This document shows positions 39,312 to 64,000 of a DNA stretch of 64,000 nt, one piece after another. A model generated the notes under the pieces. It was not told the origin of the DNA. It did no database searches and was given only the letters and a program-made list of their open reading frames with translations. The position numbers and the translations under genes are program-made. Source of the stretch: Nitrosopumilaceae archaeon (GTDB lineage: Archaea; Thermoproteota; Nitrososphaeria; Nitrososphaerales; Nitrosopumilaceae). Numbering within the stretch: position 1 is the first letter of the stretch; each line of letters begins with the position of its first letter. The DNA lies in NCBI GenBank assembly GCA_965207375.1, contig CBDBMG010000001.1, positions 192,001 through 256,000 on the forward strand, read 5' to 3'.

Positions 39312-40431
39312 TCATTAAGTACGGTAGTACTTAATAGTAGGGATTGGTAAGAAATTGTACGGCTTCGGGAAAATTTCGAGCTTTAAAAATCAACCTTGCA
39401 ATAGGCTTTACCCGAAAAAACCAGCTGGAATGCATTGGTAAGGCTGTAATGATGCTGTACCTTGGTTAAACGAAACGACAAGTCGAATATTTCGACCTAC
39501 AGCCAACTTTGAAAATTTCGAAATTCACCTGTATTTCGTCTGCCAGCCTGCCAGCCAGCCTGCCAGCCAGCCAGCCAGCCAGCCTGCCAGCCTGCCAGCC
39601 TACCGTAAGACCGGGTTGCGCTAGGTGTAGGGCTCCAGAAATTTCACACAATAAAGGTAATGGCGGCGCATTTACGAAAATCTTATTCCGAAGACGATTT
39701 ACCCACTGCGCCATGGCGATTCCCTTTATCCTTCATTCCTTTCCTTGTTCTTCTTTATTCCTTAGCAAGGTGCGAATTTCACTGAAGGTGACGATAGCCT
39801 GTAACGGCTTCTGCTTATTGCGTCACACAAAAACCTGGCTTGCACGTGATATAATTAGTTACAGTGGTACGATGTTTTCGCGTGTACTTTATTACATCGT
39901 GAACTTCGAGATTATAGCCTTGGACAAATAGCTTTTGCTGTTTTTCGAGCGTTATTTGCTATCACACAGCTGCTTTGCCATGTCAGCGCGTTGTTAATAA
40001 GCGCCTGTAAACAAGCATAATTATTACGTAAGCGCCTGTAACATTTTGTGCGCCTGCTAAAAGATTATTGAATGCTTAGCATGTATAAAAAGTAAACAAA
40101 CTAGAATGATAAAAATTAAAAATTTAAAAAGTAAGTAGGGATTGAACTTTGGATTCAATAGTGCTACAAAAAGTAAGGAAACAAGGAATAAGATTTTGGG
40201 ACGAGAGAACATTCTGGCATGAGATAATTTATAAAAGTTTAATCCCTACGTTTGGCTCACTTCATAGGTTTGCCAAAAGTAGGGATTAAATTTTTATAAA
40301 TTATCTCATGCCAGAATGTTCTCTCGTCCCAAAATCTTATTCCTTGTTTCCTTACTTTTGTAGCACTATTGAATCCAAAGTTCAATCCCTAGCTACTTAC
40401 TTTTTAAATTTTTAATTTTTTATCATTCTAG
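39312..40431 (+). mobile_element. Non-autonomous Helitron-like element with a 5' hairpin, microsatellite and ~330-bp 3' palindrome (copy A)
   Basis: A|TC start, CTAG|T end, no TSD; ATTAAGTAC-GGTA-GTACTTAAT hairpin; palindrome 40101-40431. Confidence 0.85.
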
Positions 40432-41030: not shown

Positions 41031-44000
41031 CTATATATTAACCACTGATCAGTGATGTGATCCATTAACTATAATAATTAGCTAATAGAGGCTGGCCTAG
41101 CTATAGTTTTTCAAACTGGTGATTGCCTCTAATTAACAGCTATATAGTATAATATAAGTACCAAGCTGTTGTGCCTTGTAAAACTGCAACTAAAGAATTA
41201 AAACTACATGCCAGCCAGCTTATTGAAAGAGCTACTAACCAAACATGATATATAATTTATACTGACCAAGCTAATTGAATTATTGACCAATTTATTGGCT
41301 AATTTATTGTTAGGAACCACATGAAATCTGATTGGCTAAAAATGTCAGGTCATGCAACTACACATATAACATTAAATTCGGACCACACAGCAGGCTGAAT
41401 GGCTATATGTAGGCTACATAGGAAGTTCAAATGAACTGATAAAATATCGTTAATTGTGTGGCCGGAACAAGAAGTGCAGATTTTTTCAGTTGCAAGTTAT
41501 TCATGTCCCTAAGTGATAATACATTGGTAGAGCTCAGGCTTAGCTGCTGACTTTCAACTGAAATGATCATGTACCATTTTGATACGTAAAATTCCGTATT
41601 CCATAGTGCATCTGATAGGTTTCACCTCGCAACTATCGAGTTGATTGTCAGAATTGTGGAGTTGGATCAAGATGGCTCGTCTAGCTATATACTTGTTAAC
41701 AGCATTGGATTTAGTAAGTTCTTGGTTATATCTAGCGTGATTTTTGTAATACACTAAGTAGCCTGAGGGATATTGCGAGGTAGTTTATTGTGGCAGCCGG
41801 GGGGTCAGTAACGAGACAAAATCGTCGACGTAATTTGAAAGTTGGGCTCAAAGTTGGGTTAAATTTCTTCAAATTTCACATGAACTTAAATTATTCTATT
41901 ATAAGCGCGCCTTTGTAATTAACGCCATAACGAAATTTAAATCCTGCCCTGCAAAAGCCAAGCAGTTTTCCGCATGCCGAATAATTGTGTTTGTGCATTA
42001 ATACCCTTTGCGTAGTTCTACTGCTGGGAGTGAGGCCGGGAGTTTACTGTTTAGAGACTCAGATTTCCGAACGGTTATCCCCTCAAGTTACTTGATTATT
42101 GTAGAGCTAGCTAGCCAGCCATTGCACTATACCTAGCAATGTGGAACACACAGAGACACTGACACACACATACACAGTTCAAACAGCCGGACTCTTCCTG
42201 TGAAAGCCATAGCTATGGCTATAGCTACGGCGCACGTGCAGTGCATGATGGCCAATCAATAATAGCTATAGGTACAGTAAAGTATCTGTTTGACTCATAT
42301 CATCTAGGCTACAAAGCCTCACACCTCACCTTGCACAAAACCTTCATATACTTCATGATTCCGTGCATAATGTAAGCGTAAGTCCCCTGTGCACCCACTC
42401 TTGCAAGTCTGACAATCAGCAGCCATCTTGGTAGCTGTTAAAGCATGTGGTAACTAGCTAGCTATATTCTAGTACACGTGATATATTGCTAACTATGCTT
42501 TAGCTAGTAAGTATCTATAGGTATATAGGTATATGTATATAGCTAGCATTATAACATATATAGCTACGTAAAAGATTCATACATGATAAGTAACATGTCA
42601 CTGAATATAGGTATAGCCAGATAAGGACGTCTGAACTGATATCAGCCAGCTAGCTGTAGCTATATACCTGCTACAGAGCTAGATATAGTTGGAATTTCAG
42701 CCTCCTATTAGTCTGCTTTAATTGCTGAAATTTTATAGCTTTGGTATACTGAGGACCCAAAAATATCTTGTAAGTCTGGCCTGTCCAGCAGTGGTGATTC
42801 TGCATGTGGAGAAAAGCAAAAGAAAACCATTCAAATATACGCAGCTATTTAGCTAATTTAGCTGATAATGGTAACCATATTTGTTAAAGTCTATTACTGG
42901 CCTTGATTCATAGACCTTTATTATAATTGAGATGCATATTTGAAGTCAGATTTCAAATTTCTAATTTCAAGCCAAATTTCAGATTTCAGAAATAAATTTC
43001 ACAAGGCATTGACAAAATTTCAGGTTGTTACTGACCCTTTGGTGGCAGCTAGGCAGCCGGCTATGTAGAATCAAGGGGGCGGCGACACAATCAATTCTCT
43101 TTTACCATAGGTGATTTTAAAGGGTCTGGGGTACAGCCCCCCACCCCTGCCCTGTTGAAAATAAGTTGTGAAAAATCTTACAGTATAGCTACAACACTGA
43201 TGGTAATTGATTAAGCAGTGAGTCTATAGAGTCTAGCACATCCGAAGTTTCCTAGGACATAGCTATAGCTATACTTAATTAAGGAGCAAACTTCACAAAA
43301 TTTATATTTCTGAGTGAAGTAGTATAACTTCCTTGGTCCCCTGACAAAAAACTAAGCCTCCTGTGTCCTAGTTCTAGAATTATCACTGGTTTTTATACGT
43401 ATACACCTTAAAATGCTACTAGTTTGATTATATCATGTATAAGTGCTCTCTCTGCTTAAAGTGTGTGTCATGTTATACCATCTTGATAACACAGTGCATG
43501 GTTAGCCCCCTCACCTGCCACCTCAGTCAAAAATACAAAAGGATGGATATGTTGTTAGAACACTAATTCTTGTCCATTTAATTGCATAACAATTTATACT
43601 AAAGGGGTAGCTTTGCCTTGAATTAAATACACTCTAAACCTGGCATTTCTGTACTTTACAAAATAGAACATCCCATAGCTTCTGAGGGCTACACCCCATA
43701 GCCCCTGCTTTAGAGATCCACTGTACTAGCTGTGCTTAGCTCCCCTCTCTAGATCTGGCTATGGCTGGGTGGGATAACCTATACCACTCTACTTCATGAA
43801 TTTTTAATCATATAGCCCTTTCTGTCTCATTCACAAACTAGCGTGAATGATGGAGGTTATAGAATATGGATCTAACTAGATATAAAATCTGTAAAGTCTG
43901 GGGGGTTGAAACCCCCTGGGTACCTAACCATGGCACTGAGGGATACTAGTTTCCCAGTGAATAAGTCTTGTGATTAGCAGTGCAGCCTCTATTATAATAT

Positions 44001-44678
44001 CCTTCTTTTCTTTCCACAGTTAAGGGGTTTATCACAAACACTACACTATATCCCACGGCTATAAACCTGTGAGAAGGCTTATAATTATATAGCTTGTTTG
44101 ACAGGGATGCAGAAAAAATCATGTCACGATACTCGTAATCAGTATGCACTTCACACATGCAGTCTGCTATACACCAGACTATATATACATATGAAGACAG
44201 GCCATACTGGAACAAAATTGAACAAAAAATTTATTACATTATATATGTGATCTGTTAGACTACACCCACTGAGAATAACCTTCAAAGCATAGTGCTTGAA
44301 TGCCTTCCCTATACAATACTCTCTGTGGTGCTTAGCCCTATTGAAGCACATTTAAATACTGGGCTTCAGTTTATGGCAATATAAATTTTGTCCTACAATG
44401 TCTGCAGTGAATGGAAAAGAATAACAGTAAACTTGAAAAACATACTATGCACCATGTATAATGTCTTGCATGATAAGTAAAATAGACTGTACATGAGCTT
44501 GTGCATGATATTTTTATAGGCACTGGTGATATGGGGTCAGCAGACATTTGCACCGATCGTTCCAACCTTTCCCCCTCCTCCAACCATGAATGCTGGTATA
44601 GTCAAAATATTATTATTTCATTATTTAGTTATAAAAATTGTATTTATAAACATAGGAACACACTCTGGCAATGAATGA

Positions 44679-46142
<1,464 letters not shown>

Positions 46143-46411
46143 TTTATATAAGACTAATACAAAAATGTCCATCAAAAGTATGTAGTTATAGCTAGAATTT
46201 AAAAAAATCTTGTGCCAGTATTGTTCCATATATCCTACTGCATTTTCCTTGGAATTTTAGGCATGGGGGTTAGGCATGGGAGAGACAAGGTAGGCAAAGG
46301 AGACTAGAAAAATAAAGAAGAGGCAATGATAAAAATGACTAGATAGGCATGAGAGTAGCTACATAGCTATATACTTGAAAAATATGTGGGTGAAAGAACA
46401 AAAAATTAAAT

Positions 46412-46655
46412 GTGACTGAATTTTGGAAAACCTACGTACCATCTACACACAAGTGAAATAATTAACTTTGCCACTTCATAACTCAGACCCACAAGCCAAC
46501 TAAAAGTATTTCTACAATTATTCTGGTAATTCAATGTATCCCTAACAGATATATCAGACTATTTAACCAAAGTCTCATTTCAAGCTTAGTGAAATACTTG
46601 TAATTATTTTGTTTGTCTCTTGTGTGTAGATGGTAGGTTTTCCAAATCCGGTCAC
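46412..46655. mobile_element. Sola1-like MITE with AAAT TSD
   Basis: AAAT|GTGACTGAATTTTGGAAAACCTAC ... GTAGGTTTTCCAAATCCGGTCAC|AAAT. Confidence 0.8.
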
Positions 46656-47093
46656 AAATATTTACTGATTGAAAAGGACCAAAAAGGCTATTTTTAGAAG
46701 TAGAATATTGGAAGTCACCAATGATAGGTTATGTATCCTTACTGGTGAGTTAGCATTCTACATTGTGTAATGCATAAAGCTATAGCTATGTAGGTATATA
46801 CTAACATACTGATGGTACAAGCATAAGATGTAATAGCCGCTTGTGATTAACATATATCATATGCTTATGTAGCTTCTTCAACTCTCAGACACCTTTAAAT
46901 ACAAAATTTCCATTATTTCATCTTTTCAGTTCATAGTTACCATCCCTGTAGCTGCACTGTTGCTTGTACACTGAGAACATACAGTGTATTGTCCTTATAA
47001 TTATTATTGCATGTGAAGGTCATCAGTGGTAAGTATCTATCATAGCACCAGGCTCACCCCACAATGCCATGCATTTCACCTAGTAATTTATAG

Positions 47094-50000
47094 ATGTTGC
47101 CTTTATTACTAGTGATAAATGGATCAGTGGTTGTGTTTGTTGGAGAACCTGTTGTAGTTGGAGAGGATGTACGAGTGACTATTGACTGTAGTCCACTGAT
47201 AGATGAAGCAATAGCTGGTGGAATTTCAAATCCCACTGTAACTTGGTTTAGAGATGGAAATGAACTTACAAATGCAACTGTAACAAATGTTCAAATATCT
47301 GCTGATATGAGACTTTGTATAATTACTGATACCTTACTGGCTGTTGGTGGTCAACTTGGAAATGAAGGCAATTATTCCTGTCAAGTTTGTGATGATCCCA
47401 CAGGTCCAAATTGCAGAAATGAAATCACTTGCAATGCAGTTTGTGGTGAGTAAGATTTTTGTTCTTTTTTGTTATAATGATATTGGTACCTATATTTCTT
47501 TAGGCTACCCTCATATAGTGCCACCAACTGTACCAGCAACTGTGAATCCATTTTTTATATCACTAACATGTGGACAAGACGTTACTATTGAAAGTTTAGT
47601 AGGAGTAGTTTCTCTTTCTATTGGCTGTCAGGCATTGAATGGATCAGAACCTTTGGTTACAGAAATTTACAAGGATGGTGAACTCCTCGGAGGTACAGGT
47701 TTTACATTTACAATGCTACCTCCTAGTGATGATGATTTTGGTACATATACTTTTGCACTGTCAACTGAAAAGTGTGGTACAACTACAGCAGTGTCTAGAA
47801 TAATTCGTCATGGTTAGATCTTTTTACTTTTTATAAAGTGGTAGTTACAGGGTAACTATATACCATGGTTAATTACAAGTGTTACTATACGGCTATAAGC
47901 TATTATAATATATACACAACTAATGATGGGGAAATATGATGAAAAGTCCGAAGTGTTAACTTGCTACTCCTTTTCATATTTAAGCTGTTAATGACACTTC
48001 AATTACTCTACATGGTTTCTTGTCAGCACTTGCTTATAATTAACACTTAAAAGTAGCAGTGATACAGTGGTGGCTGAAGGGTGGTTGAGAGGCTCCCGAC
48101 TTTATAAAATTCATGGGCAGAGCCCCTTCAAAACTAATGAATTGTGATGTAGTATAACATTTACTACCCTAATAGAACAGTCGATAGGAACACATCAAGA
48201 ATCCTATTTGTTTCCACTGCATCTGTGATATGCTTAACAATAACAGCCTGGCTGAAAAAGTGTGAGGCCAATCAGAAGGAGCATTATCAAATGGTTATAG
48301 GTAACCAAAAACTTTGATATCAAGTAGCTATGGCCAAGAAGGTAAAATTAATCCTAAACAAAAACAGTCTGGCTGTAAAAAAAGTCCAAGGCGGCATTGT
48401 ATCAAGTGACAACCAACCAAAGACTTTGATATCAAGTACAGCCAAGAAGGTAAAACTTTTTGTTAAAAATCCTTTCACTTGAATGATATAGCTACAATAA
48501 TTCACAGGACATTTTCACAACTATGATTGGTTTTGTCACTTGACCACCTTTATAAATAATGGATGGTACAAAAAGGTGGCCAAGTGACAAAACCAATCAT
48601 AGTTGCGAAAATGTCCTGTGAACTAGTATATTTACCCTGTAAAGCAATGAAGAGTCATAAAAGAGCCTGTGGGGTCACTGAAGGGCATTATTAATGTGGC
48701 ATGGGGTGCCAAGCAGCTCCCTATGTCCACCTCAGCTTGTGCTATGGTCTGGAGCCACTGTGATCAACTACTAAACATATCATGAAGCTTGGCTGCCTCT
48801 GTCTACTGGCAGTTATAACCAACCCACCATCACCCTCTCCACCCCCTTCCCACCTGTTCACCCCTTATATGCAACGTTCATGATATTCCGGAAGCCTCTC
48901 AAAAATCAATGATTTCAACTAGCTGCCAACTTTGTTCATATAATGCTAGGTATGTATAAAACTAGTCTACCTTGTTGCAAATCTAGAGTGATTATATACA
49001 ATTAAGCATACAGTGTCTTGAATAATTAAAATTGGTATTTGTGACAATACAGCTAGTATTCAGGTACAAATAGTACAAGATTAGCTATGATGCATAGCCA
49101 GCACTGAGCTCACCATATCATGAAGCAGCTACAGTAAAACTCAACTAAACTGCTACTGTTCTGGGCTTTGTATTGTTAATGCTAAACAAAAACAGCCTGG
49201 CTGTAAAAAAAGTGCGAGGCCAATCAGAAGCCACAAATATAAGCGACCAAAAACTCTGATATCAAGTAAGGCCAAGAAATTGAACATTTTATTAAGAATC
49301 TTTTTACTTGAATGACATACAATAGTTTACAGGGCATTTTCACAACTATGATTGGCTTTGTCACTTGGCCACCTTATAAAAGATGATAGTGCAAAAAGGT
49401 GGCCAAGTGACAAAGCCAATCATAGTTGTGAAAATGCCCTGTAAACTATTGTATGTCATTCAAGTAAAAACATTCTTAATAAAATGTTCAATTTCTTGGC
49501 CTTACTTGATATCAGAGTTTTTGGTCGCTTATATTTGTGGCTTCTGATTGGCCTCGCACTTTTTTTACAGCCAGGCTGTTTTTGTTTAGCATATCACTGC
49601 TTTTTGTAAATATTCAAAAACAGATTATATACTATAAATAAGTCCTGACAAGAAACCTTATATATAGTATGCAGAGTAATAAAATTTTAAAGGGAAGAGG
49701 AGGAAGTTAATATTTTGGGTATTTCCCTTGTATTCCCCCAAATAACTAATGAACATTATAAAGTATGTGTTATTATAATATAATTGTTAGCTATGTAGGT
49801 GGAGAACAGTTGAGAACTTCAATGAAGGCTACATCATTGCCATCCTCTACTGTTGATTGATCTACAGGAGAAGACAATTAATATTATAGTGCAAAATATT
49901 GTGTATGCTAATAGTGACAGTGGTCTCCTATTTGTAATGTGTGGCCATTGTTCACCTCTTGTTGTTTGGTATAATTATCATGGCACATTAACATGAATGA

Positions 50001-53000
50001 AATCGTTAAAGGCTAATTTTGATAAACTGAAGTGTCATAATTTCTTTAAACTTATCCTGAAGATTCATATATCAATATAGCTTGTGTATCTGAAATTTCA
50101 TTCAAATGATTTAGAGGGGGTCCGAGTTATGGAAACTATCAACATACAGTGTAAAAGTATCTCTCAAATACATTGAGGTATTTGCTTAATGCTGAAAGTT
50201 GTTTGTCTGGTAGAGCATACATAGGAGAAGTGTTGATACAAATTTGGTTGAAATCCATGCAGAAATGAATGAGTTATTAGACAAACAAGTGTATGTACTA
50301 AATGAGTGTTTTAAATATAAATTCCGGGATTCACGCCGGGGGTCACGCAAGCCCACGAAAAGTGTGCGATGAAAATAAAAGAAAGAAAGTAGAAAGAAAG
50401 AAAAAGAAAACGACGGCCGCGTAAAAAATTTTTTACTGGAAGGAGGACTTTATAAGGCTGTATCAGAAGACTGGCTGGTCCGATTTCGATGAACTTTGGG
50501 TTACTGATTCTACATTAAATGAAGGTACTAATTCTCTAATCAACGAACGAAAAGGGGCGGGGCAGATGGTTCGTCGTGCGTTGTCGCAAAACGAGCGCCA
50601 TAAAACTCGCAATGGCTGATACTCAGGAATGGAGGCAGCTATTTACTTCATTGTTGGTATATTGATTCTATATAGTAAGAACGTACTAGGTCTGTAATAA
50701 CTAAGCGGTAGCTTTTATGGCGGCTTAGTTACAGCGTCTGCGAATTTTTGAGCGGTGCTACCTGTAAATAACTCACTCGTTCGTCGTGTACGGCTGCTTC
50801 TTCTTGGCCTCGCGACTCACTATCGTGAGTCTTGATTTACTGGATTGTAAGTCAGTGTGAAAATAGTCTGCATTAGCTATACATCACTGATCCTTTAAAT
50901 AGCTCTCCTGTGTGTTAGCACATTATAGTATAACCGATTTTCCAACATACAAACTAGCTATATTCTGTATAAGCAACAATGCAGTCAAATGATTGGTGTG
51001 CTATAGTTAGCATTTATCCTATGGTGATCATGAGAGTGGCTGATAGCCATTAATATGATATACATGGATAGTCACTTTACTGAAATTTTTGAAAGTTTGT
51101 TCATATATAGAATAGTTGCATAAGTGGCTAATTAATTACTTCCGTGTAGCAAAATTGTATGCTTTGTTATATGAGTATTTCATGAGTAGAAGTTTTATTA
51201 CAATGCCTCTAAACATTGCTATGTTAGCAGGAGGCAAGGAGGAAGGTACGTATAGTAGAAACATGTAGCTAGAGTGGAGAGATTTCATTTTCACAGTCAG
51301 CGAATTATTGCTAAGTATTAGCAGGTTTTGTGTGGGCAGCAAAATCCTTTTCCCTTGAATAGAGTGAGTGACAATAAGAGAATGCTAAGATGATGGTATT
51401 GGGCAGTAGCTACACACTTAACATTTCATTGGCAAAGCTATGTATGTTACAGCTTTGTTTAGAGAACGTGACCTTTGATGATTTAAGTAGAGCACTTGTT
51501 CTTGTTGGACACAGTAGAACCACTCTGATTTTAAGTGTCTTTTGCCATAGTATTTCCCAACCACCTTCCTGTTATTTTTAACAAATCAGTATCCAATTTA
51601 TGTCAAAAGAATATAGCTAACAGACAGCTGAACTACAGCAAAAAAATGAAATTATGCCACTCTTTTTATTTGCCACATGGAAGTTGTTTTACATCATGTT
51701 TGTGACGTGTTTGCAACTACTCTGTACAAGAAACAATTTGACAATTTGTATGTCTGACTTACCGTATATTGCTTTTTGTTCACGGTGAAAAAGTTTTGCG
51801 GATGGATGAGGTACTTCTAATTCGCTGGTAAACTTTCGCGGTTCACTGCAGAAGTTTGCTGCTTATCAGGTGTCATAGAATTGTTTATTGTATGAATGAA
51901 AAGGTTTCAATGAAAAAGTTTCATGGAAAAATTTTCACGGTTACCGATTGAACTGCGAAAACAGCGATAGTTTTTCACCACAAACAAAAAGCAATATACA
52001 GTATTTAATTACTCTTGTTTTGTTTTTCAATTTATCTATTTTATTAGGTGTTCCACCAGACATTGATGAGGGGCCATTTATACCACAGCCACCTACTGTT
52101 ATGCCTGGAGACATGACAGTTACAATAGGAACTCCTACATATATAGTTGATGGATTTGAAGTTACTCTTGTCTGTAACATTGTTAGTGGAACACGCCCAA
52201 TTACCATTATGTGGATTCGTAATGGAGCATTTTACCCAGCTGGAGGAAATCAATCTATTATTACAGTACCTGATACTGATTATAATGATGGCGATGTCTT
52301 CACTTGTAGAGCTGATAATACTATAGGGTTTGACATGGAGAATACTACTATAAATGTGTTTGGTAAGTGAAATTTCCATATTTTCATTCATAGTAACATA
52401 CAATTAATATACAAGTCAGTCTTATTGCATAATTTCATGTCAATGATATAAGAATTGAAATATTGACAACTTTACTGAAATCTGTGTTATCAAGTGGTAA
52501 TGAGTTACACAGCCAAGTAAAGTAGACTTAATTCATGCATAGTCATAAAGCATGCCACCACCACAATGAGTATTGCAAGCATGTAATAAAACACCAAACT
52601 GAACTGTTACTAAACCTTTTAAATACTGGGCTCCATAAAACCACTTACCAGTAATCTTCACTATGTCTTCCAACCTAGGATGTTAATCCTTTTCTAGCTT
52701 CTACTTATGGATTCTATAGGACATTCTAAGTCTAGACCTGTCACTGGTTTTTACAAAAGTTTCTTGACTTAAATAGTATCATGCACTTATGATATAGTTT
52801 GGTCTTTCTCTAAATCAACTTTGTGGGTTTGTAAAATTTCAGGCTGAACCACCTCTGTAATATTGTATGGCTCATGTGTCCTTGACTAATTAAGGTGTGA
52901 ATTTTATGTTTTACATTAGCTAATAACATTGTACTGCATAGCATATGTGAGAGCAACACTGATTGTCAGCCTTGTTTGAAATTTATATTTGTTTTAATGT

Positions 53001-56000
53001 ATAGAAGCCATTCATATCATTTTCATAAGTGACTATGCTAATGTAACACATAAAAATTCCTCCAAACTGTTTTTATTCAACCAATAAAGTTATGATACCT
53101 TTAGGAGAGGGGAGACTTATCAGACAAAGAAATTAAAGACGATAGTATCGTTACAGTTGGAGTTGGAATTGCCATACAATATGCTCTATATAATTCCCAC
53201 TCAAGTCACATTAATCACCTAAACTAAAGTATGCATGCAAGTACCACACTTAGTGCTTTTTATACATGCATCTATCTACTTAACAGTAGTCAGACATCAT
53301 ACCACTGTTACTGTTCATTACATAATTTTTGAGACCTATTAAAATCAGGTGATACTTGTCTTTATCAGGTGGTCATAATATAAGGGTTATTGATAAGGTG
53401 TGTCATTGTACACATATCCGGCTTAATTTTTTCTCATTGAGTAGCTAGCTATAATTAATAGTCTGTTTTCTGGGCAATGATGTAGTTTATTTTTGCATTT
53501 CACTATCTCAGTAAAGTAACTCTTACTCTTTTAACAAGCAACCTAATTTTTCTAAGAAAGTAAGTCCTCAGACCCCGCCCTTAATTTAAACATCCTTTGA
53601 ATTTTGTTCCATATATGTAGAGCTTGTCTTTGCTCTTCGTACTTTAAGATCACGGAGTTACCAAATAAAATATGATTAAGGTGCTTAATTTATAAGCCTT
53701 CTATGACTGTTTTAAGTTACAGAAGATACTTCACATTTGTATTAAAAGAATAATATAAACTACCCAATAAGTTAACCACTTAGCTATAAGAGTTGACAGT
53801 TATAAGTGATGAAACTATAAGAACTAATTCGGAATGTTCAGGGAATGTAAATTAGGTCCTTTTGAACATTTTTATAGCTTAACATGACTTTTGATAATAT
53901 TTGCAGTGCATTATCACTTTGCTTGTATAGAAGTCATTATTAGACCATCATCTTTTCCAAATCATTCTGAATTGAGAGAATGGAAACACTATAATATTAC
54001 TTAAACAATATTCATTTCTATTGATACCAGTATAGCAAAATTTGTATAGATTACTTGATAGTTGGTATTTTTGATGAATAGTGTGCCTGTATACATGCCA
54101 ACTAACTGCATGTATCGGAATGTATCAAAAACCCCTTAAGGTGATGAGGTAATACAACTAACACGCAACCCATGTATTTCTGTAAGACAGTTGGTATTTT
54201 TGATGAATAGTGTGCCTATATACATGCCAACTAACTGCATGTATCAGAATGCATCAACAACCCCTTAAAGTGACAAGGTAATACGACCCATGTATTTCTG
54301 TAAAACACGCAATCATTACGTAACAGTTGGATTAATAACTACCCACTCCAGGTTTTGTTTAGCAAAAGTTTATAAATTCCTATTATGACTGCTGTCACTA
54401 TGGCTACTGTCGCTATGACTTCTGTGACTATCACTAGTTACTATGACTACTATGACTATGACTACTGTGACTATGACTACTGTGATTATGACTACTGTGA
54501 CTATGACTACTATGACTATGACTACTGTGACTATGACTACTGTGACTATGACTACTATGACTATGACTACTGTGACTATGACTACTATGACTATGACTAC
54601 TGTGACTATGACTACTGTGACTATGACTACTGTGACTATGACTACTGTGACTATGACTACTGTGACTATGACTACTATGACTATGACTACTATGACTATG
54701 ACTACTATGACTATGACTACTGTAACTATTGTGACTATTGTGACTGTGACTGCTGTCACTATGAGTATTGTGAATTTGTGTTGTTTGCAGAGCCACCACA
54801 AATTCTACCTATTCCTTTCCCAACTCCTCCACCTGGTGAAATAACAGTCAGTACTGGTCAACCTATGAATACTACTATTATTACACTTGGCACAGATGTT
54901 ACTATTTACTGTCCATCCAGTGGTATTGATACTCCTAGTATTGAATGGTTCAGAAATGGTGTAATGGTTGTGGCTGGTGGTCGGTTTACAATCTCTACAA
55001 CAACATTACCTGGAGCAGTCATTACTAGTGTTTTAAGAATTGATGATTTTCAAGGATCAGATGCTGGTACTTATACCTGTACTGCTACCAATGTAGTGGG
55101 TTCAGATGATGGAGGTACTACATTGCTAGGAGGTTAGTTGTTACAGGCTACATATTTCATTTCATTGTTATGTCAAATTTGTTGTAACACCTTCACACAA
55201 TTACATCAAAGGATGCAGGTGTGGATATCAGCACACTTGGCTGTGGTATCACCTGGACATCAAAGTGTATAAGTGTGGCATAATCTGATGTCACCTATTT
55301 GAAGTGTTCAAAAACTTTAACTTGGTCTTTATATAGTCACACCAATGCAATATCGATTGTAGTTTTTAGTTTTTAAGCTGATTATTAATTGCCATTTCAA
55401 TACAGTTTTGTTTTTAATCTAAAAATGTTTCTAAAGGCTATCTGTTATCTATTTCAAGTTTATAAGCTGAAGTATAACTAAGCGCCATTCGAGCTGAGTT
55501 GCTCACGTGACAAAAATAATCTATTTACTGTGTGACTGTATGTAGCTATATTAATCTACTTTAGTTACAATACTCACCATTATATTAAGCCCATTATAAA
55601 TCTTGCAGCTTTATAAAAAGTTGTGGTAAACCCACAATCACTGCCACTACCATGCAAGAACGTCATGACAATGATAAAATAGAGACCCACAATGAGTACT
55701 CATTACTATATAAAGAGGCTGAGAGTTTAGCATCAAGGCCATCCAATTGGTAGTGATGTGTGATATTGAGTTTTTATAGACTATACGATATCAATATAAT
55801 AATTACTTTACAAGGTCAATATCAATACGATAATAATATCTGCTATATGTACCAAGTACCCACTGCCAAGTAAATGATTAGTTACTATAAGGGTTTGCTA
55901 CTGCAGGTTTTTATAAATGCTTGCTAATTTCAGTAGAGAAGTTTAATATTTTTTACAGCAAACTCATCAAAGGTATGATATTTGAACAACTTTACATGCA

Positions 56001-59096: not shown

Positions 59097-59479
59097 CTAA
59101 ATATTCTACATTTGTTTTCATGATCACTGTGCTATGACCAAAGGTACATAGATGCATGCAATGTTTTGTGAATACTATGGATGGCATAGCTAGTAGCTAG
59201 CTATAATGCAAACATCAGCATCAATATTGTATTCACATTAGCTGATGGTATAAAATATGCATGCACATACTACAATTGTAGCTTATAGATAGCTAGCTAG
59301 CTTGCTACGTAACATCCTGTCAACTAGTTATGTTTGTTATTGTTCTAGCTCCATTATGTTCTCATGAAATTTGTAGATCTAGAAGAAATATCTTGTGCAT
59401 AATGTAAGTTGCTCTATAGTCTACATACGTACGTAGGTAATAACAAAGGGCCCCAACTCCAAAAAATCTTGTATGATAT

Positions 59480-61714
59480 GTGACTGTCTCTGCAAAAACC
59501 AGCCATGTTCGCACTAAAATTTAAATTCATTTTTTTGCCCCAGCTTATAGCTATACTTAATAGCTAGCCTAACACCATATCTCCTATGGCCAGACTCAAG
59601 TGGTCTGCTTTTCTGAGGGGTGGATTTGGGGCCCTGTGAAACCGTGACTGACACATTGGCACCTGTGGAGCGCACCAATTGGGCGTTGTCAGCCTGGAAT
59701 TCTACCCTTGACCAGAATGATGTCCCTTCGGCCTGGTTGTATGGTCAGGACCATCTGTGGGCAGCTGGTCACCTCGTGTCTTCACCTGGGGAGGTTTTTC
59801 CTCCTCCCTCCCCACCCCCCCACCCCACCCTCCCCTCCCCTCCTCCCTCCCGCCCACCCCCTCATAACACTGGGCTAAAATTGATGCACACCTTCGAAAA
59901 AATCGTCTGAAAAGGCCTGAAATCAAGCAAGGAACAGCTTCAAAGGTAAACTGTATTTTATTCAATAGATTACTAAGTAAAGTTTTGCTAAACAAAAGCG
60001 GCCTAGTACGAGCAAAAGCTGGTAATTTCACTTTAAAAACTTTAAACGCCTGTTTCTCTAATTACTACCAGGTGCGAACATGGCGGGTTTTCGCAAGGAG
60101 GGTCACATGTGATTATATAAAAGTGTTGTGTATGCCTAGTGCGTCTCTATACTAGCTATTCCTCACCTTATGTGCAAAGGGAAGCTTCCACGTACAAGAG
60201 GTGGCCCTGTGAAGGCCAGAGCACTACTCCCAAGAATGACAACGTCAGGGTAGCTCACGTGATCCACATGTTATTTTATAAATGTGACTGTCTCTGCAAA
60301 AACCAGCCATGTTCGCACTAAAATTTAAATTCATTTTTTTGCCCCAGCTTATAGCTATACTTAATAGCTAGCCTAACACCATATCTCCTATGGCCAGACT
60401 CAAGTGGTCTGCTTTTCTGAGGGGTGGATTTGGGGCCCTGTGAAACCGTGACTGACACATTGGCACCTGTGGAGCGCACCAATTGGGCGTTGTCAGCCTG
60501 GAATTCTACCCTTGACCAGAATGATGTCCCTTCGGCCTGGTTGTATGGTCAGGACCATCTGTGGGCAGCTGGTCACCTCGTGTCTTCACCTGGGGAGGTT
60601 TTTCCTCCTCCCTCCCCACCCCCCCACCCCACCCTCCCCTCCCCTCCTCCCTCCCGCCCACCCCCTCATAACACTGGGCTAAAATTGATGCACACCTTCG
60701 AAAAAATCGTCTGAAAAGGCCTGAAATCAAGCAAGGAACAGCTTCAAAGGTAAACTGTATTTTATTCAATAGATTACTAAGTAAAGTTTTGCTAAACAAA
60801 AGCGGCCTAGTACGAGCAAAAGCTGGTAATTTCACTTTAAAAACTTTAAACGCCTGTTTCTCTAATTACTACCAGGTGCGAACATGGCGGGTTTTCGCAA
60901 GGAGGGTCACATGTGATTATATAAAAGTGTTGTGTATGCCTAGTGCGTCTCTATACTAGCTATTCCTCACCTTATGTGCAAAGGGAAGCTTCCACGTACA
61001 AGAGGTGGCCCTGTGAAGGCCAGAGCACTACTCCCAAGAATGACAACGTCAGGGTAGCTCACGTGATCCACATGTTATTTTATAAATGTGACTGTCTCTG
61101 CAAAAACCAGCCATGTTCGCACTAAAATTTAAATTCATTTTTTTGCCCCAGCTTATAGCTATACTTAATAGCTAGCCTAACACCATATCTCCTATGGCCA
61201 GACTCAAGTGGTCTGCTTTTCTGAGGGGTGGATTTGGGGCCCTGTGAAACCGTGACTGACACATTGGCACCTGTGGAGCGCACCAATTGGGCGTTGTCAG
61301 CCTGGAATTCTACCCTTGACCAGAATGATGTCCCTTCGGCCTGGTTGTATGGTCAGGACCATCTGTGGGCAGCTGGTCACCTCGTGTCTTCACCTGGGGA
61401 GGTTTTTCCTCCTCCCTCCCCACCCCCCCACCCCACCCTCCCCTCCCCTCCTCCCTCCCGCCCACCCCCTCATAACACTGGGCTAAAATTGATGCACACC
61501 TTCGAAAAAATCGTCTGAAAAGGCCTGAAATCAAGCAAGGAACAGCTTCAAAGGTAAACTGTATTTTATTCAATAGATTACTAAGTAAAGTTTTGCTAAA
61601 CAAAAGCGGCCTAGTACGAGCAAAAGCTGGTAATTTCACTTTAAAAACTTTAAACGCCTGTTTCTCTAATTACTACCAGGTGCGAACATGGCGGGTTTTC
61701 GCAAGGAGGGTCAC
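59480..61714. mobile_element. Composite array: three 627-bp TIR-bounded modules separated by two 177-bp spacers (804-bp period)
   Basis: Modules 59480-60106, 60284-60910, 61088-61714, identical by eye. TIR GTGACTGTCTCTGCAAAAACCAGCCATGTTCGCAC / GTGCGAACATGGCGGGTTTTCGCAAGGAGGGTCAC. ATAT on both outer flanks. Confidence 0.92.
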
Positions 61715-62699: not shown

Positions 62700-62990
62700 C
62701 ACAGTATTAATTCCCTCCTAGTTTGTTGATACTTAAAATTATGGTTTCTTGTCAGGTATAACTAAACATTGTAGCTATAGTTACTTATAAAAAGCATTGA
62801 TGTCCTAAACAAAAACCCTGGCTGATTGTAAAAAAAGTGTGAGGATATAGTTAAAGGTGGCTAAGTGACAATGCCAATCAATAAAAGCATTTTTTAATGA
62901 AGTTTTGGTCACTTATATAACCATATTACAATGCCACTTATGATTGCATGGTCTCACATTTCTTTTACAGCCAGGCTGTTTTTGTTAGGT
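62700..62990 (+). mobile_element. Degenerate family-B element (body plus collapsed palindrome)
   Basis: ATGGTTTCTTGTCAG..CTAAACAAAAACCCTGGCTG ... CAGCCAGGCTGTTTTTGTTAG. Confidence 0.6.
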
Positions 62991-63007: not shown

Positions 63008-63193
63008 TATACATACATACATACATACATACATACATACATACATACATACATACATACATACATACATACATACATACATACATACATACATACATAC
63101 ATACATACATACATACATACATACATACATACATACATACATACATACATACATACATGCATGCATGCATACATACATACATACATACATACA
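63008..63193. repeat. (CATA)n microsatellite
   Basis: Directly visible. Confidence 0.97.
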
Positions 63194-64000
63194 TTATTAC
63201 TGTCTGTTGTCACTTGTAGCCTACACGACGTATGAGGACTGCTACTAACTTCAAAATCTACATGCATCCTTGCTGACAAGTGAAGTCACAACAAAAAACT
63301 GGATTGAATAAATATTGTGTGCAAATAGATTTACTTTTGTATATTTCCCAATTTAGTTGATTTAGCCGTTATATAACCTGATGTTGTAGTTTAATGTGTA
63401 GCTATAGCTAGCAACAATGATATAGCTACATATTCAATCATAAAAATGAGTTGTTTAACTCTAGAGATAACCTTGCACAATAGCATGATGATTATACTCA
63501 CATGACGTGAATGTATTTTTAGTGCATTAATCTGTCATAACTACTCTCTGTACAGCCACATGTGCATGCACGGTCTGGTAATAGAAATTTACTAGCAGAT
63601 GTACCTGCCCTATTATGTAAGGTGTCTATGCATAGATCATAACAGTCAACTACTCCACAATGGATTCCCTAGTCTACTGAGTCTACTTAGTTTCCCATGC
63701 TTGTTGTCCTATGGCTACATCGGTATAGTCTCTGCCTAATCTCCAACACCTATAGCAAAATCACCCCAATCTTAAAAAGGTGATAAACACCTAATTCCTC
63801 ATTATTGACCGATCAGTCTAACTCAAAGGTCCATTTAAAACAATGCATTGGTGATGTTTAGTAGGAAACTTGAGAGATCTAGAAACAAAACAATGAGTGA
63901 TATAGCTAATAGTGGTCATTCAGAGTTTGACCCAATCATCTATAGCTACTGTATGTAATACCATGTTGTTCAGGTCTGTAGAGGAGTGGTTTTGAAAGCC

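Follow-up and report, generated by a model that had tools for sequence, protein, structure and literature searches.

A probable non-autonomous Helitron-like element with a giant 3' hairpin and a hairpin loop found in two orientations

The DNA analysed here is a window of 64,000 nucleotides (nt), G000:C2:192001-256000, from an assembly of four contigs (C1-C4) filed as a Nitrosopumilaceae archaeon; coordinates without a contig prefix are window positions. Our data indicate, with a probability of about 0.7, that positions 49180-50835 (minus strand) are a non-autonomous Helitron-like element, probably in sponge DNA, that ends in a giant 3' hairpin and whose hairpin loop flips through recurrent inversion, which is not obligatory at each transposition. 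The element is regarded as Helitron-like because it begins with 5'-TC, inserts between A and T (A|T) without a target site duplication (TSD) and ends in a 3' hairpin. Contigs C2-C4 are eukaryote-like host DNA binned with a prokaryote, which is C1, and the host DNA available to the counts given below amounts to approximately 2.1 Mb. The element is referred to as copy B; its family is compared throughout with another palindrome family of the window, here called the first family.

Ends, insertion sites and relatives of the element

Copy B and the other features of its family in the window are as follows.

49180..50835, minus strand: copy B, a putative complete non-autonomous Helitron-like element of 1656 nt, young subfamily, 5'-TC ... 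TTTAGCA-3'
50814..50835, minus strand: 5' terminus TCAAGACTCACGATAGTGAGTC, with a hairpin of 7-base-pair (bp) stem, GACTCAC-GATA-GTGAGTC
50796..50817, minus strand: 22-nt subterminal motif AGTCGCGAGGCCAAGAAGAAGC, element positions 19-40, with imperfect repeats in both palindrome arms
49645..49657, minus strand: internal motif GGTTTCTTGTCAG, 1178 nt from the true 5' end, taken for the body start in the initial annotation
49179-49592: palindrome of copy B, arms 49179-49375/49396-49592, 197 nt each and 99% complementary, with a 20-nt loop
49396..49592, minus strand: body-proximal (5') arm of this palindrome
49376..49395, minus strand: loop, 20 nt, in element orientation TTTGCACTATCATCTTTTAT, the majority 'E' state (the state of copy B)
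49180..49375, minus strand: distal (3') arm, the last element base, A of ..TTTAGCA, being at 49180
48632..49179, no strand: host or older-repeat spacer between copies A and B, contiguous with 50836 onwards in the paralogous empty sites
48004..48631, plus strand: copy A, old and diverged, its 5' limit undefined and reaching left of 48004
62743..62989, plus strand: copy C, old, body motif on the left, palindrome centre deleted and loop gone
43625..43888 (C2:235625-235888), no strand: paralogous empty site for the C2:24956/C2:393340 insertion

We found that the palindrome is the 3' end of a non-coding repeat of 1656 nt (50835 to 49180, minus strand), and eight further copies match copy B at 97-98% across all or most of the element. 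The initial annotation had given the palindrome a body of approximately 73 nt; the body is instead approximately 1243 nt, homology among copies spanning 50835 down to 49180. Within copy B no open reading frame (ORF) of at least 60 amino acids (aa) was found, and an Rfam search of 39000-64000 at the gathering score returned no family. Folded as single-stranded DNA, the 3' 500 nt of copy B form a single hairpin of -251.6 kcal/mol with the last base paired, and none of 100 shuffles was as stable (mean -48.0, z = -46.6). The host T at 49179 also pairs in this stem.

The ends were set on 14 full-length copies whose flanks are unrelated beyond the ends. All 14 start with TCA(A)GACTCACGATAGTGAGTC (TCA(A)GACTC), and 13 end in ..GTTTTTGTTTAGCA or a close variant (..TTTTGCTTAGCA in two), the last bases of the copy at C3:28355 being mutated. 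The 5' terminus TCAAGACTCACGATAGTGAGTC matches once in the window, where none is expected by chance, and 50 times in the assembly with at most 3 mismatches. When partial copies are included, the base before TC is A in 17 of 18 and the base after GCA is T in 23 of 24. Three insertions have paralogous empty sites (copy B, C2:63274 and C2:24956), and at all three the flanks join A|T exactly, with no gap and no duplicated base. The target duplication that the initial annotation proposed to look for is thus absent. For copy B the empty sites are C2:36850-36990, C2:352610-352750 and C2:345890-346030, which read ..GTATTGTTAA|TTTACTGG.. without the element; the closest paralog of the C2:24956 empty site, C2:31892-32199, has the exact junction ..GGGA|TAACC... 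The copy at C2:61642-63274 sits in an arm of a first-family palindrome, so that dozens of first-family copies represent its empty site.

The empty sites also bear on whether 47900-49790 might be one cut-and-paste element of the foldback or MITE type (MITEs being miniature transposable elements with inverted repeats), with long diverged terminal inverted repeats (TIRs). Indeed, GGTTTCTTGTCAG and its complement flank the region, and the arms 47988-48038/49633-49683 are 71% complementary. However, window 44000-52500 has a segmental duplicate (95-99%) at C2:32288-38337, in which copy A and the spacer are present and exactly copy B is missing. A and B therefore inserted separately, and three paralogous sites keep A and the spacer while lacking B alone. 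Furthermore, copies elsewhere are single and one-sided and have no TSD. A single element with diverged TIRs, named in the initial annotation as the outcome that would overturn it, was therefore rejected, and we assign it next to no probability.

The one-sided linkage of palindrome and body proposed in the initial annotation holds across the assembly. Among 42 loci, ..ACAAAAAG[CAT]AGTGAT lies directly on one side of the palindrome in 32 and on both sides in none. In a further five the body is placed on one side from other evidence; the last five have no body, one being a solo palindrome and the others truncated or very diverged copies. The palindrome core is present at 61 loci, all in C2-C4 and none in C1, and the body approximately 35-44 times. 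The young subfamily comprises eight loci that are 97-100% identical. A second subfamily of six loci matches copy B end to end, with approximately 85% identity in the body and 93% in the palindrome, while a third has a different middle part and includes a mini-element of approximately 600 nt. The remaining copies are older and scattered.

Several copies record particular events. Two members of the second subfamily, C4:744705-746341 and C4:753730-755366, lie 9 kb apart and share 99.94% identity over 1639 nt, their flanks being unrelated, which suggests a very recent, possibly local, transposition. At C4:432146-432210 a young copy has a duplicate of its 5' end, 66 nt long, immediately upstream, so that two 5' termini stand in tandem. 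A solo palindrome without a body at C3:371357-371773 (within C3:370800-372800) forms a precise tail-to-head junction with a 5' end, ..TTTAGCA|TCAAGACTCACGATAGTGAGTCGCGG.. on the minus strand, where family homology stops after approximately 26 nt. This arrangement looks as if an insertion had gone into an A|T formed at a resident 3' end, or as if it were the junction of a tandem or a circle.

We next consider relatives outside the family. The Helitron_like_N domain (PF14214) has four matches in C2-C4. The features concerned are as follows.

C3:312056-319217: candidate autonomous element, with Rep (DUF6570 + Helitron_like_N, 1214 aa), PIF1 helicase (632 aa) and UCH protein (546 aa)
45816..46142, plus strand: first-family palindrome, flush with the 3' terminus ..TTATCATTCTAG, then T; loop state 'same'
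40101..40431, plus strand: second copy of the first-family palindrome, ending ..TTATCATTCTAG, then T; loop state 'inverted'

The candidate autonomous element ends in a palindrome of approximately 360 bp that is flush with its 3' end, and the outer 33 nt or so resemble those of the copy B family; the end reads ..GTTTTTGATTGAGA then T at both loci where it was found. A search of PDB sequences with its Rep gave no match. A Rep/Hel element in C4 has a perfect palindrome with 123-nt arms downstream. In the first family the 3' end is CTAG then T, and the stem is again flush with the end. The initial annotation had called the two palindrome families unrelated; in kind they are not, since both look Helitron-like, with a giant palindrome running to the 3' end. 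Since flush giant palindromes recur in the copy B family, the first family and the C3 element, together with the C4 palindrome, giant terminal hairpins seem, from these sequences, to be the rule for Helitron-like elements of this host.

Loop orientation and arm identity across copies

The initial annotation held that the loops of copies A and B read alike on the plus strand and are therefore inverted relative to their bodies, and the positions of arms, loops and GGTTTCTTGTCAG bear this out. The loop of copy B reads ATAAAAGATGATAGTGCAAA on the plus strand, and that of copy A (48552-48571) reads ATAAATAATGGATGGTACAA and is in the inverted state. The motif GGTTTCTTGTCAG lies to the left of copy A, at 48015, and to the right of copy B, at 49645-49657 on the reverse strand. 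Copies A and C do both have the body on the left as claimed, but copy C has lost its loop, so that within the window the comparison of A with B is the only informative one. The arms of copy A (48493-48551/48572-48630) are 59 nt long and 92% complementary, the right arm being truncated to 59 nt. An outer-arm unit of copy A is duplicated in tandem (48225-48340 and 48351-~48470), and its similarity to copy B is confined to the palindrome and 37 nt around GGTTTC.

Across the assembly, loop state could be assigned at 29 independent loci that keep the loop, with duplicated loci counted once. This number leaves out three loci without a body, three very diverged loci, the C2:136200/C2:312963 pair with half a loop, and three loop-deleted loci (two mutual duplicates, counted once, and copy C). 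We found that 22 loci are in the 'E' state and seven are inverted, the latter as follows.

Inverted-loop loci: copy A, C2:175507, C3:107932, C3:391159, C4:243765, C4:631695, C4:676942

The two young bursts, namely the eight young and six second-subfamily loci, contain no inverted loop (0/14), whereas seven of the other, older 15 loci are inverted (8:7). Closest relatives differ in state (C2:175294 versus C4:683933; C3:390954 versus C4:575104; subfamily 3 with three inverted and two not), and therefore flips recurred at least four times. In the first family, 20 copies are in one state and 19 in the other among 39 oriented, a number in which two pairs of duplicates, and two rows with a body match that is not upstream, are counted. 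Loop isomerism in both families, as first proposed, is thus confirmed. Four first-family loop haplotypes, which differ by small indels and substitutions, are each present in both orientations as exact reverse complements. Loops of the copy B family are likewise exact reverse complements, bounded by ..CCACCTT/AAGGTGG.., and first-family loops are bounded by ..TTTTGG/CCAAAA... The inverted segment is exactly the spacer between the complementary arms, in at least four independent lineages per family.

We considered whether the loop orientations could be artefacts of assembly or polishing at near-perfect palindromes, given that spacer orientation between perfect inverted repeats is beyond short-read resolution. 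However, the 14 most perfect young palindromes share one state, where an arbitrary choice would scatter them. Furthermore, duplicated loci agree (0/6 pairs differ), and individual loop haplotypes are met again as exact reverse complements. The contigs, 0.4-2.2 Mb long, also resolve 1.6-kb repeats of 98-99% identity, which suggests a long-read assembly. An artefact is therefore very unlikely.

In parvoviruses, including adeno-associated virus (AAV), a terminal palindrome with an asymmetric tip exists in two orientations (flip and flop), which arise in equal amounts at each replication. Rolling-hairpin replication of this type, with terminal resolution inverting the whole terminal palindrome in every round, would suit a terminal palindrome with a paired 3' end and is compatible with the 1:1 ratio of the first family, although all copies of that family are at least 1.9% diverged. 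Obligatory hairpin transfer is contradicted by the absence of flips in the young bursts. The hairpin is moreover at one end only, the ends and target are Helitron-like, and Rep/PIF1 genes are present while no parvoviral genes were seen. In subfamily 3 an arm-specific marker lies in the right arm of both an E copy and an inverted copy, a weak point that concerns a single site. Taken together, we hold parvovirus-like replication to be highly improbable.

The arms of the palindrome were compared in the same copies. Consensus arms of the subfamilies differ at 8-14 columns, all of which are mirrored in both arms, indels included; among them are a deletion of 3-4 nt carried by the young subfamily and, for subfamily 3, ACAGCCTGGCTG versus ACACCTTGGGTG. 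Individual copies show the same pattern, with a 4-nt insertion in both arms of C3:63944 and two private changes, both mirrored, in the young copy C3:388259. Relative to the group consensus, 44 columns are changed in both arms and 160 in one arm. In 13 full copies, two truncated ones having been dropped, we counted 15 arm-to-arm substitution mismatches versus approximately 94 expected from twice the body divergence from consensus, an expectation that is inflated if body differences predate insertion. Mismatches common to independent insertions would argue against re-templating of the arms, and 143 of 151 mismatch states are singletons; the eight shared states consist of transitions and of differences in homopolymer length, with a recurrent CpG site among them, and are uninformative, the source copies having perfect arms. 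A right-arm CpG has decayed independently in three lineages and is uncorrected. Our data indicate that arm copying is real but rare in place, and that arm perfection belongs mainly to the propagating lineage. Re-templating of the arms, raised in the initial annotation as a step of each transposition, thus occurs at least sometimes, as the mirrored 3-4-nt indels of the subfamilies indicate, but not at each transposition, given the lack of flips in the young bursts.

We propose that the hairpin, formed on a displaced single strand, would serve as a transposition terminator by analogy with Helraiser. The 20-nt loop may invert recurrently between the arms when replication switches template from one strand to the other, or when the inverted repeats undergo an equivalent exchange. 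Switching within a strand, or conversion of one arm by the other, together with selection for an intact hairpin in propagating copies, would keep the arms mirrored. Flipping is not obligatory at each transposition and may occur in place or in active source copies. Generic template switching was ranked first because it explains both families without a special step.

Alternatively, flipping and arm re-templating may be coupled to transposition, with the giant hairpin, whose 3'-OH is paired at the stem base, provoking template switching. Such a step might fall during resynthesis of the donor strand, synthesis of the complementary strand or self-priming, and source copies would change state while amplifying. 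In the copy B family, the first family and the candidate autonomous element alike, the stem reaches the 3' end. The first family is split 20:19, and each of its loop haplotypes is seen in both states; none of the duplicated insertions differ in state; and in-place arm conversion is rare whereas lineage changes are mirrored. All of these are consistent with coupling. Yet if each event gave the two states 1:1, 0/14 flipped loops in the young bursts would have a probability of approximately 2e-4. In a tree of 22 first-family copies (four rows dropped, three very divergent or partly flank and one duplicate), loop state did not cluster significantly: it changed 6 times, versus 7.5 on average after shuffling, and 81-105 of 500 shuffles gave a number as low. 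The tree fits independent flips per copy equally well and cannot separate flips in place from flips in lineages. We consider coupling rather unlikely. If there were such a hairpin-dependent step of transposition, loop isomers and mirrored arms would be its sequence record, and the isomer ratio of a family would report how its copies are made.

A number of observations weigh against our preferred interpretation, a Helitron-like element whose loop inverts recurrently by template switching. Of 30 first-family pairs at 2-4% divergence, 17 differ in state, and the first family is already randomised at a divergence of 1.9-3% from consensus, versus 0/14 in the copy B family bursts at 0.6-3.8%, so that a single clock of in-place flipping fits poorly. 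Among six insertions that were segmentally duplicated and keep an intact or partial loop, none differs in state. Arm changes that postdate duplication are mostly one-sided (one column clearly mirrored and one possibly converted, among 26 differing columns in three pairs), and therefore in-place homogenisation of the arms is weak. The loop states rest on the assembly, short reads being unable to fix them. Regarding the class of the element, the copy B family ends in TTTAGCA versus the CTRR of HLE1 elements. Within the 2.1 Mb of host DNA we found neither an autonomous copy with the 5' end of the copy B family nor, by local alignment, motif search and direct alignment, the 5' end of the C3 element. 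Furthermore, the sole candidate partner carries HLE2-type domains, whereas A|T insertion and 5'-TC are traits of HLE1 or proto-Helentrons (PMC4067079, PMC11417382). The contrast between the two families leaves three possibilities, namely differing flip rates, flipping in amplifying source copies, and a single loop orientation competent for transposition in the copy B family; in Helraiser, loop sequence matters (PMC4778049).

Host DNA and further repeats

The contigs measure 2.16 Mb (C1), 0.43 Mb (C2), 0.78 Mb (C3) and 0.93 Mb (C4), C2-C4 together making 2.14 Mb. We found that ORFs of at least 150 aa cover 72% of C1 versus 8-15% of C2-C4, in which microsatellites, dispersed repeats and transposons are abundant. 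The low cover by long ORFs and the repeats identify C2-C4 as eukaryote-like DNA binned with the prokaryote. As a practical point, contigs C2-C4 of a 'prokaryote' assembly are host DNA; the assembly that carries them was scored as 99.95% complete and 0.06% contaminated.

The host is probably a sponge, since the sole other record with the repeat family is a contig of a sponge-symbiont metagenome-assembled genome (MAG), and since small parts of the stretch are common to sponge and marine metagenome runs. A genome scan with a conserved 20-mer gave four loci, of which only two are real, both on this one contig. The contig (C4 of G001, 2.57 Mb, titled Candidatus Poribacteria MAG) holds five to six family copies at approximately 2.26-2.48 Mb, with 69-82% identity. 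They have the same architecture and mirrored arm changes, and the loop is in the copy B state in 4/4 copies that keep one. The end of this contig probably represents host DNA, either joined to the bacterium or binned with it. A scan of metagenomes with the conserved 20-mer found no copies and two single-arm chance matches. In contigs of sequencing runs (approximately 100 nt, Logan), summed depth over the element is 10^3-10^4 times that of the flank, which is not a copy number, and linkage of loop and flank is impossible at this length.

Further repeats and duplications were noted around the copies. An open frame of 151 aa at 47362-47817 ends at GT just upstream of copy A and may be a host exon, in which case copies A and B would be intronic. 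At 54365-54798 approximately 20 or more tandem 15-nt units lie within a 250-aa ORF (54385-55137). Three tandem units at 59478-61385, 100% identical and spaced by 804 nt, each contain 37-46-nt inverted repeats (..GTGCGAACATGG..) of another repeat family. In both families, several copies have microsatellites, (ATAC)n and (AT)n, that begin right at the 3' end or close to it, for example at 63009-63200 and in the flanks of C3:388259, C3:496647 and C3:754138. The regions C3:206990-214990 and C4:37737-45737 are 99.5-99.7% identical in opposite orientation, while their central 2038 nt, with a subfamily-3 copy, match in the same orientation and are therefore inverted relative to the flanks in one region of the pair. 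No inverted repeats of at least 20 nt were found at the ends of this 2-kb inverted segment (C3:209886-211923).

Comparison with known systems

The Helitron 3' hairpin is known as a short terminator, and its weak definition underlies gene capture. Canonical Helitrons are described as having 5'-TC, insertion at A|T, no TSD and a 3' hairpin (PMC4067079, PMC11417382). HLE1 elements such as Helibat and Helraiser run 5'-TC...CTAG-3' and carry a palindrome of 19 bp at a distance of 11 nt from the 3' end (PMC4778049, PMC4067079), and the Helraiser hairpin is reported to be the transposition terminator (PMC4778049). The elements described here resemble HLE1 in 5'-TC, A|T insertion without TSD, a one-sided 3' hairpin and non-autonomous derivatives, and the first family even ends in CTAG then T. 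They differ in that the hairpin is 327-414 bp, approximately 20 times longer than the 16-20 nt of HLE1, and is flush with the 3' end and cleavage site rather than approximately 11 nt upstream. Since whole families in at least two host genomes carry a hairpin approximately 20 times longer, near perfect and flush with the cleavage site, they offer a natural test of the terminator reading.

The HLE2 group (Helentrons, proto-Helentrons, HINE/DINE-1), some subgroups of which carry UCH, is approached by the C3 candidate element, which contains DUF6570 and UCH, both named as HLE2 markers by the authors of HELIANO (PMC11417382). Proto-Helentrons are alike in combining a Helentron-type Rep with A|T insertion. 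The 22-nt 5' subterminal motif of the copy B family, AGTCGCGAGGCCAAGAAGAAGC, recurs inverted 31-52 nt from the 3' end, inside the stem (local alignment with 19/22 matches and one gap, both direct and inverted); it appears no more than reminiscent of the subterminal inverted repeats of HLE2. In HLE2, terminal inverted repeats of 12-16 nt are expected, whereas here the motif is 22 nt long and lies within the stem and not before the stem-loop, which is itself an order of magnitude longer. T|T insertion is likewise not what we found. The empty sites are one T short of a T|T reading, and if the boundary is moved to ..GCAT, a T comes next in only six of 14 copies.

Among other systems, TIR or foldback elements such as MITEs differ from the copy B family, whose ends are asymmetric and lack a TSD. 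Parvoviruses and AAV share a terminal palindrome with an asymmetric tip in two orientations; here, however, the hairpin is at one end only, the isomers are unequal in young copies (0/14), and the ends are those of a transposon with no viral genes. A literature search found no account of giant terminal palindromes or loop isomers in Helitron-like elements, which is not proof of absence.

The closest parallels to the loop isomers come from template switching, which is described as perfecting quasi-palindromes and inverting hairpin loops, including in a single event; an inter-strand switch leads to loop inversion and an intra-strand switch to an arm copied from the other arm (PMC10710096). Recurrent minute loop inversions in chloroplast hairpins are a classic parallel (PMC2903610, PMC3123225). 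As in these cases, we found loops that are exact reverse complements between inverted-repeat stems, recurrent within lineages, and stems perfected by copying one arm from the other. Here, in contrast, the events affect dozens of dispersed nuclear transposon copies with stems of 170-200 bp and isomer ratios of 7:22 and 19:20. The dispersed copies thus constitute a replicated natural experiment on palindrome dynamics, namely loop inversion, arm-to-arm copying and central deletion, in what is probably an animal genome.

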